Virus record (IMG/VR): IMGVR_UViG_3300021960_000017
DNA length: 64,000 nucleotides
From: a virus
Lineage: Duplodnaviria > Caudoviricetes
Direction: 5' to 3' (one strand)
Shown here: positions 8,246-32,272 of the stretch, in pieces
Position numbering within the stretch: position 1 is the first letter of the stretch
Layout: the number at the start of each line of letters is the position of its first letter
The notes under the pieces: model-generated
Database searches by the model: none
Told to the model about the DNA's origin: nothing
The model's input: only the letters and a program-made list of their open reading frames with translations
Program-made: the position numbers and the translations under genes

Positions 8246-8497
8246 ATGGCTAGAACAGCAGGAAAAGACAAGCGTATTATGGATCTTAAGGCAAAAGCAC
8301 CTAAAGTTCCGCCTAATACATGTCCTTATATTAACTTTGTGCAAGAAATCATCGAAGATCATTTTAAGTATGATGATAGTGTGGATGAACACCGCAAGGC
8401 TACCTTGCTTGAAACTCTAGAGTATATTAGGAAAGCAAACGAAACTCTCAGAGACTCTTCACTTTATTGGTATCAACAGTACAAAAAAGTTGCATAA
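8246..8497 (+). CDS. Hypothetical protein
   Basis: ORF with SD AAAGGA. Confidence 0.7.
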   Translation: MARTAGKDKRIMDLKAKAPKVPPNTCPYINFVQEIIEDHFKYDDSVDEHRKATLLETLEYIRKANETLRDSSLYWYQQYKKVA

Positions 8498-8510
8498 ATT
8501 TGAAAAATGG

Positions 8511-8538
8511 TTGACTCCAGGTGTTTTTGTGCTATTAT
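8511..8538 (+). promoter_or_regulatory. Early sigma70-type promoter
   Basis: TTGACT-16-TATTAT, extended -10 TGC. Confidence 0.65.
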
Positions 8539-8571
8539 GATAATATGAAAACAAACACAAGGACCAAGCAA

Positions 8572-8913
8572 ATGAACAAGATTTATGCAGTTATCGAGGA
8601 CTTAGACAACAAGCGCAACGAGCTAGGCTTTGAAACTCGCTGGAGCATGTTCAACGAAGAGATTGTTAACCTCACAGATAAGGTTGTTGATGAAGAGCGT
8701 GAAACATATCGCATTACATATCGTGCATATGATGTGAACATGCAAGAATGCGAGTTCAGCCACTTCACACACGAAAACACTGTAGAAGGTTTTTGGAGAG
8801 CAGCAGAGTCAGTTTTCCAATCAGCCAAACGCCACTGTGGTGACTGGCATGTGTTTGTAGAAGGCTTCGAGCTGGTAGAAGACGGCAGCTTTAGAATGAT
8901 TGCTGGGTCCTAA
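8572..8913 (+). CDS. Hypothetical early protein (start MNKIY)
   Basis: AAGGACCA leader before the ATG at 8572. Confidence 0.7.
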   Translation: MNKIYAVIEDLDNKRNELGFETRWSMFNEEIVNLTDKVVDEERETYRITYRAYDVNMQECEFSHFTHENTVEGFWRAAESVFQSAKRHCGDWHVFVEGFELVEDGSFRMIAGS

Positions 8914-29227: not shown

Positions 29228-29242
29228 AATTACGATAAACGG

Positions 29243-29270
29243 AAAAAAGCTCGTTTAGGCGGGCTTTTTT
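29243..29270 (+). terminator. Rho-independent terminator (possibly bidirectional)
   Basis: AAAAAAGCTCG-TTTAGG-CGGGCTTTTTT. Confidence 0.75.
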
Positions 29271-29282
29271 CATCTTAAATGG

Positions 29283-29310
29283 TTGACGTTATCGTATTCT
29301 ATGCTAATAT
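29283..29310 (+). promoter_or_regulatory. Early sigma70-type promoter
   Basis: TTGACG-16-TAATAT, TGC upstream of the -10. Confidence 0.6.
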
Positions 29311-29342
29311 GATAATATAGAAACTAAACAAGGACCAGACAA

Positions 29343-29600
29343 ATGCTCGGAATGAAATTTACAAATTCTAAAGACCTAGACTTTGATGTCCTAATGCCAG
29401 GGATTGTTGATGCTTGGTTTTCCTCTAACACTCCAGATGACATTGTTAGGATTTTTGAAACTGCAAGTGGCGATTTCGACTTATGGATAGGCCGCCAACA
29501 GTTTGCCGCTTTCGAAACATTTGAAGACGCCAAGCGTCATGCAGAGTGTTTCGTTACCGTAGAAATTACAGCAGAAGATTTAGGAGTTAAATTGATATGA
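29343..29600 (+). CDS. Hypothetical early protein
   Basis: AAGGACCA leader. Confidence 0.65.
   Translation: MLGMKFTNSKDLDFDVLMPGIVDAWFSSNTPDDIVRIFETASGDFDLWIGRQQFAAFETFEDAKRHAECFVTVEITAEDLGVKLI
29553..29587 (+). repeat. 35-bp direct repeat, left copy
   Basis: GTTACCGTAGAAATTACAGCAGAAGATTTAGGAGT, identical to 31076..31110. Confidence 0.95.
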
Positions 29601-30175
29601 ACGAAATTCAAAAAGTAGCAGATTACATTAATACTCATATGGACTTTCCTAGATTTGCAAGATTATGTGTTGCTTTAGGAAGTCAAGTAAATGATGCCCA
29701 ATTACGTTTTATAAAAGCATTGGTTTTTGAACGTAGTATGGAACAATATTCTAAAGGTAAAATTAAGTTTGTAGGTGAAGAAGGGTGTGACCTTATTATA
29801 CCAGAGTTAAATGTAAGAGTAGAACAAAAGTATACTGAAGACGCTTTGTTTACGCCTAAAAAAAAGACTCTCAGAGAAAACACTAAGAGTATTAAACTTA
29901 TGAACAGTATGGGGACCAATACCCATAATAAGTTGCCGGAAACCTATGCTGATTATTTAATTTTTATTGGGAACCAGGCAGCAATGTTATTCTCTAAACA
30001 AGATTTAGAGCAACATTTACAGGTTGGAGGAGATGGCATAAGTGCTAATATCCCGACACGCAAAGGAATCCTACTTGCATCGCCTATAGACATGGATGCT
30101 AACAATCAGACTCAAATAGATTTTATTTCAGGATTTATGAAGTATATTGACAGTTACATACAATCTGTTAAATAA
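29597..30175 (+). CDS. Putative PD-(D/E)xK nuclease (possible type II restriction endonuclease)
   Basis: GCDL...VEQK motif; directly upstream of a DNA methyltransferase. Confidence 0.5.
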   Translation: MNEIQKVADYINTHMDFPRFARLCVALGSQVNDAQLRFIKALVFERSMEQYSKGKIKFVGEEGCDLIIPELNVRVEQKYTEDALFTPKKKTLRENTKSIKLMNSMGTNTHNKLPETYADYLIFIGNQAAMLFSKQDLEQHLQVGGDGISANIPTRKGILLASPIDMDANNQTQIDFISGFMKYIDSYIQSVK

Positions 30176-30182
30176 TATAGAT

Positions 30183-31049
30183 ATGTATAAAGTAGAAAAC
30201 AAAGATTGCATTCAAGGCCTTAAAGATCTTGGAGATGGATCAATTGATTTAATATTCACTGATCCTCCATATGGAATTGACGGTGATAAATTAGATGCAC
30301 ACTACAACCGAGACGAAAGCAATGTAGTTCCTGGTTATGTTGAAGTGGCTCTCGAAACTTATGGAGAATTTAGTAAAAACTGGATTACAGAATGTGCTCG
30401 TGTTTTAAGGCCAGGCGGCAGTATGTACATAGTCAGTGGATATACTAATTTACATCATGTGCTAAATGCACTACATAGTACAGATTTACAAGAAGTTAAT
30501 CATATAATTGCAAAATATACATTTGCTGTTAGTACTACAAAAAAATGGGTTAGTAGTCATTATCATGTATTATTTTGGGCAAAGCCTGATAAGGGAAAAC
30601 AAAAGAGAACATTTAACACGAACGTTTTCTATACAGACCAAAAAGACAGTTATCATGATAGACTTACAGTCCAGGACTTGCCACGAGATTATAAACCTGG
30701 CCAGATAAAAAACAAAAACCAATTAAGTGAAGAGTTTATCAAGAAATTTATTTTATACAGTTCTAACAGAGGCGACACTGTACTAGATCCTTTTTGTGGA
30801 GGATTTACTACAGCACGTACAGCATTAAGGTATGGACGCAAATTTGTAGGTTTTGAATTAAATAGCAATGCGTATAATGCATTTTTACCTACCCTAGATA
30901 ATGTAATATCTATGGAAGATCCTATACCTGAACAACCAAATCCAGAAGAACTAGCAAGAAGAGAAAAGATGCGAGAAGGTTGGCGGGCTGATAGACGTAA
31001 GCGTAAGGAAAACCCTGTATATGATCCTGGAGGCGTTTTTAAAACTTAA
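30183..31049 (+). CDS. Site-specific N6-adenine/N4-cytosine DNA methyltransferase (beta class)
   Basis: FTDPPY before LDPFCGGFTT; RVLRPGG. Confidence 0.92.
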   Translation: MYKVENKDCIQGLKDLGDGSIDLIFTDPPYGIDGDKLDAHYNRDESNVVPGYVEVALETYGEFSKNWITECARVLRPGGSMYIVSGYTNLHHVLNALHSTDLQEVNHIIAKYTFAVSTTKKWVSSHYHVLFWAKPDKGKQKRTFNTNVFYTDQKDSYHDRLTVQDLPRDYKPGQIKNKNQLSEEFIKKFILYSSNRGDTVLDPFCGGFTTARTALRYGRKFVGFELNSNAYNAFLPTLDNVISMEDPIPEQPNPEELARREKMREGWRADRRKRKENPVYDPGGVFKT

Positions 31050-31075
31050 AATTGGTTGACAATACACATAAACAT

Positions 31076-31110
31076 GTTACCGTAGAAATTACAGCAGAAG
31101 ATTTAGGAGT
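31076..31110 (+). repeat. 35-bp direct repeat, right copy
   Basis: Identical to 29553..29587. Confidence 0.95.
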
Positions 31111-31146
31111 AAGCCCAATTTAGTAGCACCTTAGATAAATAGATGC

Positions 31147-31668
31147 ATGAAACACATGCATCATATTATCCCAAAACACGCAGGTGGCACTGACGATTCT
31201 AGTAATTTAATAGAACTTACTATAGAAGAACATTCAGAAGCACATCGTAACTTGTATGAACAGTATGGCAGACAAGAAGATTATCTTGCCTGGAAAGGAC
31301 TTGCTGGATTAATAGGCAAGGAAGAAATGTTAAAAGCAAAACTTTCGTTAAACTCGTCTCGTCCTGGAAAATTAAATACCTTTTATGGCATGAAACACAC
31401 AGAAGAAACCAAACGCAAAATATCAGAGAAGAAAAAAGGCGTTAGTATTAAAATGCCTCCAAAGTCTAAAGCACACAAGAAGAAACTTTCTGAGGCCAGA
31501 CGTGCAATGGCTAAACGCTATGTTTTTGAGCATAAGGATGGCAGCACATTTACGGGCACGACTCGTGAACTTTCTGAGATCACCGGCTCAAATCCAGCAG
31601 AACCATGGAAGTTAGTTGTTGGGCAATATAAGACACACAAGGGCTGGAAACTGATTGACTCATTGTAG
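31147..31668 (+). CDS. HNH/NUMOD3 homing endonuclease-like protein
   Basis: HHIIPKHAGG...NLIELTIEEHSEAH; FYGMKHTEETKRKISE. Confidence 0.85.
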   Translation: MKHMHHIIPKHAGGTDDSSNLIELTIEEHSEAHRNLYEQYGRQEDYLAWKGLAGLIGKEEMLKAKLSLNSSRPGKLNTFYGMKHTEETKRKISEKKKGVSIKMPPKSKAHKKKLSEARRAMAKRYVFEHKDGSTFTGTTRELSEITGSNPAEPWKLVVGQYKTHKGWKLIDSL

Positions 31669-31682
31669 ATTCATGCTATTAT
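31655..31682 (+). promoter_or_regulatory. Early sigma70-type promoter
   Basis: TTGACT-16-TATTAT, TGC upstream of the -10. Confidence 0.6.
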
Positions 31683-31687
31683 AAAGT

Positions 31688-32272
31688 ATGATAGAAAATA
31701 AGACAAAAATAATACTAACCGATTGTGATGGCGTACTTTTGAACTGGGAGTACGCCTTTAATATTTGGATGGAAGGTCATGGATATTCCATGGTCGAGAA
31801 CGGAAAGTTCATTTATAACATAGCAAAACGCTATGGCATAGAGCCTGAAGAAGGTGTTAAATGCATCCGCTTTTTTAATGAAAGTGCTACTATAGGCTTT
31901 CTACCAGCATTACGAGACGCAGAACATTATGTGCGTTTACTAGGTAACCTGGGATATAGATTCCATGTTATTACAAGTTTAAGCAAAGATCCCAACGCAC
32001 AGAGATTGCGTACACGCAACCTAGAAAAACTGTTTGGTAATGTGTTTGATAAGTTCATATACCTTGATACTGGTGAAGACAAAGATACTGTCCTAGCAGA
32101 GTATAAGGATAGTGGATTGTTATGGGTAGAAGACAAACCTGCAAATGCTGAAGTTGGTCTCGAAATGGGATTGCGGAGTGTGGTCATGGAACACGCCTTC
32201 AATTTACATTATGAAGGCGTGGCTCCGTTTGTTAAGAATTGGGCTGATGTATATAAACTAATTACTAATTAG
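31688..32272 (+). CDS. HAD-superfamily (5'(3')-nucleotidase-like) protein
   Basis: TDCDGVLLNW, VITS, WVEDK. Confidence 0.8.
   Translation: MIENKTKIILTDCDGVLLNWEYAFNIWMEGHGYSMVENGKFIYNIAKRYGIEPEEGVKCIRFFNESATIGFLPALRDAEHYVRLLGNLGYRFHVITSLSKDPNAQRLRTRNLEKLFGNVFDKFIYLDTGEDKDTVLAEYKDSGLLWVEDKPANAEVGLEMGLRSVVMEHAFNLHYEGVAPFVKNWADVYKLITN

Follow-up and report, generated by a model that had tools for sequence, protein, structure and literature searches.

Restriction-modification (R-M) systems are known from chloroviruses and marseilleviruses, for which recycling of host DNA or exclusion of co-infecting viruses lacking the methylation has been proposed (PMC7253447). Another previously described kind of system is the R-M unit inserted with a long target duplication, which is recognized where both R and M lie inside an insert of less than 20 kb, the duplication is longer than 30 bp, and one copy is present in the comparison genome (PMC2853133). 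Within the T4-type phages, PeSL mini-circles are known in RB49 and phi1 (PMC2839356). Here, we describe a locus in a viral DNA stretch of 64,000 nucleotides (IMG/VR record IMGVR_UViG_3300021960_000017, referred to as the window), in which a gene of a putative restriction endonuclease and a DNA methyltransferase gene are bracketed by an exact direct repeat of 35 nt. Among marine T4-like phages with a strictly lytic life, complete R-M pairs have received little study. The locus is real and well documented; it likely holds a phage R-M pair, and the repeat is likely a recombination scar involving a neighboring HNH gene.

The two repeat copies lie 1523 nt apart (start to start) and are the only two across the window, while a chance match of a 35-mer in 64 kb was estimated arithmetically at about 1e-12. 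The left copy is the 3' coding end of an upstream gene, g85, whose TGA overlaps the ATG of open reading frame (ORF) ORF192; the 288-aa methyltransferase gene starts 7 nt 3' of ORF192; and a TTGACA stands 14 nt ahead of the right copy, which precedes the HNH gene. This layout agrees with the sequence-only reading made earlier from the letters of the window, which had reported the exact repeat around both genes, its left copy in a coding end, and its right copy between a TTGACA and a NUMOD3-HNH gene. The features of the locus are given below, where H3 is the haplotype of the window, H2 is a haplotype without the R-M cassette, and H1 is a haplotype with neither the R-M nor the HNH gene.

29343..29600, + strand: g85, an 85-aa gene of unknown function (from the ORF list), with tail G-V-K-L-I* and an ATGA overlap with ORF192 of the native type
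29553..29587, + strand: left 35-bp repeat copy, g85 codons 71-82, from the proposed GTTA crossover point to the divergence of the haplotype tails
29597..30175, + strand: ORF192, predicted PD-(D/E)xK nuclease with a Type II restriction-endonuclease fold, putative restriction endonuclease (motif, AlphaFold2 model, structure matches)
30183..31049, + strand: beta-class N6-adenine DNA methyltransferase, CcrM-like (PF01555, 2.7e-31; PADLOC MTase_II, 9.5e-75)
31052..31079, + strand: truncated NT5C-type early promoter, -35 TTGACA (31056-31061) and spacer, broken off where the -10 box begins, in register with contig L127
31076..31110, + strand: right 35-bp repeat copy, its first 4 nt (GTTA) common to the promoter, a microhomology at the joint
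31076..31123, + strand: displaced piece of the g85 3' end, non-coding, covering codons 71-85 and ending S-P-I*; the end of g85 in H2 has the same sequence
31147..31668, + strand: free-standing HNH-NUMOD3 homing-endonuclease-like gene (PF01844, PF07460, PHROG 655)
31655..31682, + strand: working NT5C promoter, TTGACT-N16-TATTAT, with the -35 in the HNH 3' coding end and a conserved -10 common to H1
31688..32272, + strand: NT5C-like 5'-nucleotidase gene (PF06941, 1e-5), syntenic in L127 and L128, the conserved right border of a variable slot

Both repeat copies are present in an independent contig assembled at k=141 (L001, 142 kb, 99.98% identical), and the full arrangement recurs at 99.97-100% identity in k=141 contigs of independent samples. 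The k=31 contigs of sequencing runs X1 and X4 end precisely at the repeat, which is expected of a true 35-nt repeat; therefore, the observation is real and no artefact. In run X1, the repeat unitig had a k-mer depth of 19.9 versus about 30 predicted for two copies at 15x, which may be an oddity of how depth is calculated on very short unitigs. Searches of Pfam and PHROG gave no match to g85, of which three alleles were seen, P0052 (KLI), P0053 (KVI), and P0050 (SPI).

We are confident, from its predicted structure, that ORF192 is a PD-(D/E)xK nuclease with a restriction-enzyme fold. The residues D65, E76, and K78 (D65...E76-x-K78) are invariant across 33 aligned homologues and are located on strands 2 and 3 of the AlphaFold2 model (pLDDT 93.4). 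According to the VIA-align structure search, the model resembles NaeI (Z 9.8, 139 residues, root-mean-square deviation 3.2) and ThaI (Z 9.1, 166 residues), followed at lower ranks by NhoI, DpnI, SwaI, SfiI, PvuII, and EcoRV. The top rows of Foldseek were likewise almost all Type II restriction enzymes with weak E-values, none of the rows against PDB reaching E <= 1e-3, and the fold call is based on the VIA-align Z-scores and the motif. A homodimer of ORF192 was predicted with a score of 0.87 versus 0.15 for the best control, with contact agreement of at least 96% and pLDDT of at least 88; in the calibration of this tool, 20 of 30 solved homodimers reached the mark, as did 1 of 23 monomers. The ORF192 family comprises 305 representative clusters in metagenomes, and every sampled member is named hypothetical; a scan of 185,579 bacterial and archaeal species genomes, limited to the patterns used, found no relative of ORF192.

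The methyltransferase carries DPPY at about residue 28 and DPFCGG at about residue 200, and its PF01555 match spans residues 21-232; the order of an N-terminal DPPY and a C-terminal FCGG therefore assigns it to the beta class. Its solved relatives are CcrM (the best, 6pbd, 4.4e-22), MboIIA, and RsrI. The beta-class methyltransferase proposed from the sequence alone was thus upheld by the family match and motif order, and the PD-(D/E)xK-like ORF proposed beside it was borne out by the invariant motif, the AlphaFold2 model, and the NaeI and ThaI fold matches.

Orthologous R and M genes, separated by -23 to +7 nt and with methyltransferases 70-94% identical, were found in six different contexts: in the window; between regA and hsp20 (L013, whose cassette has 80% nucleotide identity to that of the window); near UvdE (L019); before a 5'-3' exonuclease gene (L021); before rIIB (L024); and between ClpX and an Rv2179c-like exonuclease gene (L026). 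With further adjacent pairs at IMG/VR loci, at least eight loci in the six contexts are known, in which the genes often overlap. This tight linkage makes a Type II R-M unit likely, and ORF192 and the methyltransferase are therefore probably a cognate pair. As an observation apart, the nuclease gene holds a fixed place before the Rv2179c-like exonuclease gene in three phage lineages (L026, L121, and L005).

The alternative is that the two proteins are not cognate, the methyltransferase being a self-protective anti-restriction orphan and ORF192 an unrelated nuclease acting in host-DNA degradation, in repair, or on methylated DNA. Several observations point this way and weigh against a cognate pair. 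A close homologue of ORF192 has no methyltransferase gene within 5 kb (L005:5001-5588); in L121 and L122, the methyltransferase gene lies 1.85 kb upstream of the nuclease gene (L121:254-3582); a 42%-identical homologue whose neighbors on a giant-virus (GVMAG) contig are SAP, SWIB, and RING-finger genes has no methyltransferase homologue within 3 kb (L126:2932-3537); and a distant family member (L130) is also without a linked methyltransferase. In addition, ORF192 had no sequence match in Pfam, PHROG, PADLOC (no restriction-endonuclease model), or PDB, and the methyl-dependent enzymes DpnI and NhoI are among its structural matches. However, the orthologous methyltransferases stand directly beside the nuclease gene at the loci listed above, the structures most similar to ORF192 are those of orthodox Type IIP enzymes (NaeI and ThaI), and the predicted dimer is symmetric, so that we regard two unrelated proteins as the less probable case, though one of some weight.

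Depletion of motifs in the window, which the sequence-only reading had proposed as a check, was observed, and none of it is attributable to the R-M pair. AGCT is under-represented (85 observed vs 226 expected), as are ACGT, TGCA, GCGC, CGCG, and GTAC, and GANTC occurs 96 times vs 217 by base composition, which is under half of expectation. These motifs were considered as the recognition site of the pair and set aside, because host systems could equally account for their depletion.

Contigs of four runs were aligned to the window, and H2 was seen in two of them (X5 and X6). In H2 (L011 and L012), the left flank is 98.8-99% identical to the window up to 29587 and is joined via one repeat copy to the sequence from 31076 onward (100%); g85 ends with S-P-I*, and the HNH gene begins 23 nt further. 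The skip of 1523 nt is covered at a depth of 4.9 in X5 and 4.4 in X6, the ORF192 region has zero depth, and the flanks have 4.4-6.4x; uncovered cassette parts were used only jointly with the bridging contigs. A few cassette fragments from the methyltransferase gene, including the cassette-to-repeat junction, are present in the same runs at 2.3-3.1x and 100% identity, so cassette-filled and empty forms probably coexist. Between 31076 and about 31775, H2 and H3 show no difference (100% identity); further out, their flanks differ by 1-3.5%.

H1 (L127 and L128) comes from a more distant strain, which is about 94% identical in g85 and has one repeat copy. Here, g85 ends with K-V-I* and overlaps through ATGA with a 67-aa ORF, which is followed by an intact promoter and then NT5C. 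The sequence-only reading had asked for empty sites with a single repeat, and both H2 and H1 provide them; it had also named as adverse outcomes an ORF that is not a nuclease or relatives that all carry both repeats, whereas ORF192 is nuclease-like and single-repeat alleles exist.

H1 also accounts for the sequence between the methyltransferase gene and the right repeat copy, which is in register with the NT5C promoter of H1 (GGTTGACAAT, a spacer of equal length, and the last nine bases identical). The match ends at GTTA, the first bases of the -10 box, after which the window continues with g85 codon 71, while the other half of the promoter (-10 box and leader) stands just 5' of NT5C at about 31672 and matches H1 from the -10 box on. 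The TTGACA, earlier taken for an orphan element, is instead the -35 of a truncated NT5C promoter. The left g85 tail (K-L-I*) with its ATGA overlap is native, because it is of the same type as in H1, and the right repeat copy is best read, from these alignments, as a g85 tail out of its native place and part of the HNH-bearing segment. Relative to a genome ordered g85, R-M pair, promoter, and NT5C, the foreign segment would run from 31080 to about 31675, and it contains the g85 tail S-P-I*, a spacer of 23 nt, and the HNH gene, which is the H2 configuration. We also considered GGTTGACAATA-N3-ATAAA as a general end of mobile cassettes; its 93 matches in IMG/VR are near chance by estimate, no duplicated upstream sequence followed any of them, and the idea was abandoned when L127 showed the element to be the NT5C promoter.

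The best explanation, which we favor with moderate confidence, is that H3 arose from one illegitimate crossover at GTTA between H2 and an R-M-bearing haplotype, H0, whose existence we infer. The interval between g85 and NT5C would be a variable slot, occupied by the 67-aa ORF in H1, by the HNH gene in H2, or by the two-gene Type II R-M unit, and the window would hold the last two together. The crossover would have joined the genomes of two phages infecting the same cell: H0 (g85, R-M pair, promoter, NT5C) gave the part that ends with GTTA, where the -10 box begins, and the observed H2 (g85, HNH gene, NT5C) gave the part that begins with GTTA at g85 codon 71. The repeat would then measure 35 nt because the parental g85 tails diverge that far beyond the joint. 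The HNH enzyme may plausibly have triggered the event by breaking an HNH-less allele, with repair copied from H2 and one side sealed by microhomology; sealing within g85 instead would have deleted the cassette. Recombination between the repeat copies would likewise delete the cassette and regenerate H2, so that change may be possible both ways.

The HNH gene is sporadic at a fixed site, being present in H2 and H3 and absent from H1 and from two contigs of a sister lineage (L009 and L010), and it is 100% identical between strains despite their differing flanks. Its domain matches are marginal (PF01844, 21.7 bits with a cut-off of 21.4; PF07460, 22.3 bits with a cut-off of 20.4), and it matches the homing endonuclease family PHROG 655 at 3.6e-19.

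The sister lineage has an analogous structure. In L009 (1470-1516 and 2778-2824; the same in L010 and L027), a unit of 1.3 kb lies between 47-nt direct repeats of the 3' end of g84, with one mismatch; it consists of a terminator, a promoter, and a 360-aa gene without Pfam or PADLOC match, and its right repeat copy is preceded by a truncated GGTTGACAAT promoter half.

Some observations speak against the crossover as we describe it. No HNH gene is near the analogous joint of L009 and L010, and such joints therefore do not need a break by an HNH enzyme. H0 was sought among contigs encoding the exact methyltransferase, all of which proved to be H3. H2 comes from Logan k=31 contigs of one study, and its junction has no 31-mer absent from H3, therefore the case for H2 rests on the depth contrast. 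Moreover, the direction of events is presumed, and H2 as a deletion derivative of H3 could equally fit.

A second explanation takes the repeat-bounded unit for an excisable mini-circle, made up of the R-M pair and one repeat, which loops out and re-enters by homologous recombination at the 35-bp repeat, in the way of the PeSL mini-circles of RB49 and phi1, with H2 as the excised state. T4-type phages do form circles between short repeats (PMC2839356), and the filled and empty forms probably coexist in X5 and X6 (empty form 4.4-4.9x, cassette fragments 2.3-3.1x and 100% identical). However, this leaves the origin of the duplication unexplained, and the cassette depth equals the flank depth in X1, showing no amplification; as the origin of the repeat it is unlikely, while such excision is compatible with the crossover model as a later step. 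The same depths give no support to the amplifiable unit of the sequence-only reading. Its wider suggestion of a recent insertion or excisable unit holds in that the cassette is polymorphic and the same pair occurs at other loci in related phages, and fails in that a target duplication by R-M insertion is improbable.

Such an insertion would have carried the R-M pair by itself into an H2-type genome with a long target duplication, in the manner known for R-M units of bacteria, e.g., through filled-in staggered breaks. All that Furuta et al. 2010 formally ask for is found here (an insert of 1,488 bp, a 35-bp repeat, and a single copy in L011 and L012), and the pair is clearly mobile among phages. 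A duplication copied at the R-M insertion with no other mobile element is not what was found, as the right copy is contiguous with the HNH gene. Furthermore, the left end of the cassette recreates the native g85 tail and ATGA coupling of H1, and the right end shows in-register homology to the NT5C promoter of H1. The cassette ends are thus native to the slot, and the pair was therefore probably already resident there in one parent; a de novo insertion is disfavored and improbable, because an insert from elsewhere would not bear native slot ends. Finally, an assembly artefact in the repeat or cassette placement is scarcely credible: a 35-nt repeat is just 4 nt longer than k=31 and confuses such graphs, but the independent k=141 contigs described above show the full arrangement.

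In the crossover model, the R-M unit would consist of an orthodox homodimeric PD-(D/E)xK endonuclease and an N6-adenine methylase. The phage DNA would arrive methylated, and the nuclease could cut unmethylated DNA of the host or of competitor phages early in infection. Transcription would proceed from the early promoter of g85, with ORF192 translationally coupled to g85. On a wider and speculative view, to which we give a low probability, two selfish elements compete for one slot: the R-M unit is normally lost to overwriting by HNH homing, which turns the locus into H2, and the window is a rare microhomology-sealed escape that kept both; the R-M unit would then be a weapon against phage or host DNA, the carriage of which is policed by a homing endonuclease.

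Further features were found around the slot as follows.

29240..29342, + strand: terminator-like hairpin, early promoter (TTGACG-N16-TAATAT at 29283-29310), and conserved leader 5' of g85, PeSL-like
30147..30176, + strand: promoter-like TTGACA-N18-AATAAT inside the 3' end of ORF192, just 5' of the methyltransferase start (11/12, a consensus match only)
31135..31162, + strand: late-promoter-like ATAAATA, then an 8-bp hairpin with the HNH start codon (fold -13.7 kcal/mol, z -5.4)

The promoter-like site in ORF192 could allow independent expression of the methyltransferase. The HNH start codon (31147) is in the 5' arm of the hairpin, and a second in-frame ATG is at 31156. The PeSL-like composite (terminator, AATGGTTGAC promoter, and leader ending AAGGACCAGACAAATG) occurs in the window at 8480-8590 and 29240-29346 and also in L009, and its part at 29302-29346 is also present on contigs from another locus of the same phage.

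The genome that hosts the locus is a large uncultured estuarine T4-like myovirus. The source runs are estuarine and marine metagenomes, the neighboring genes encode Cpn10, an RFC-like clamp loader, radical-SAM enzymes, PhoH, a ClpB-like protein, and TctA, and relatives with the same cassette encode regA, the gp62 clamp-loader subunit, and rIIB; the same protein was also found on a 228-kb contig. A search of INPHARED phage DNA with the 4-kb region gave as its sole match a 123-nt HNH stretch in Klebsiella T4-like phages. Neither the phage collection nor IMG/VR contains a close relative. IMG/VR gave no match to the exact repeat or to g85, and a metagenome scan with g85 found one further contig of the L009 strain and nothing else.

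The conserved pair, whose nuclease is from an unnamed PD-(D/E)xK family, offers a testable case of viral restriction against host or rival DNA. This uncharacterized nuclease family occurs in T4-like phages of marine origin and in one giant virus at least; if the two elements do compete, it would underlie the proposed weapon. The three alleles together with the sister-lineage joint form an unusually clean record of the rebuilding of a phage hyperplastic region, showing alternative cassettes per slot, a promoter-internal crossover, a 4-nt microhomology, and a duplicated gene tail. They also advise caution, since an R-M pair between long direct repeats does not prove that the R-M unit itself moved.

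Compared with known enzymes, ORF192 shares with NaeI and ThaI, Type IIP enzymes of the EcoRV/PvuII branch, the placement of D...(D/E)xK on strands 2 and 3, a similar size, and a (predicted) dimer, while the sequence identity is just 9-16% and the Topo-like DNA-binding domain of NaeI is missing from ORF192. The HNH-NUMOD3 gene resembles the free-standing homing endonucleases of T4-type phages (mob/seg, I-HmuI-like HNH; co-conversion) in that it stands between conserved genes, is variably present, and provides the gene after it with a substitute -35. The late-promoter-like box of the HNH gene and the hairpin around its start codon recall I-TevI of T4, which is translated only late. Unlike in those phages, the event here would have been sealed by a 4-nt microhomology and would have left a duplicated gene tail; homing by this HNH gene is putative.

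The PeSL shuffling described in hyperplastic regions of T4-type phages (Arbiol et al. 2010, PMC2839356) likewise involves small early genes framed by cassettes of a terminator and a sigma-70-like promoter, and alternative occupants per slot and crossovers within the promoter are also seen here; unlike in PeSL shuffling, the repeat is g85 coding sequence, and the joint is in a promoter on one side only. The R-M insertions of Nobusato, Furuta, and Kobayashi (PMC2853133) likewise have R and M alone between direct repeats of more than 30 bp that overlap the 3' end of the upstream gene. Unlike in these insertions, the right copy in the window came with the HNH gene and the cassette ends are native, and an unequal crossover between haplotypes explains the duplication better.

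By analogy, the nearest functional counterparts of the putative pair are the R-M systems of chloroviruses and marseilleviruses (CviAI/M.CviAI; mel_015/mel_016 of melbournevirus), in which a restriction endonuclease gene and an N6-adenine methyltransferase gene are also adjacent in a lytic virus, and the 42%-identical homologue of ORF192 lies on a giant-virus contig as well. Unlike those systems, the carrier is a bacteriophage, and the putative nuclease belongs to an unnamed family outside the Pfam, PHROG, and PADLOC models.

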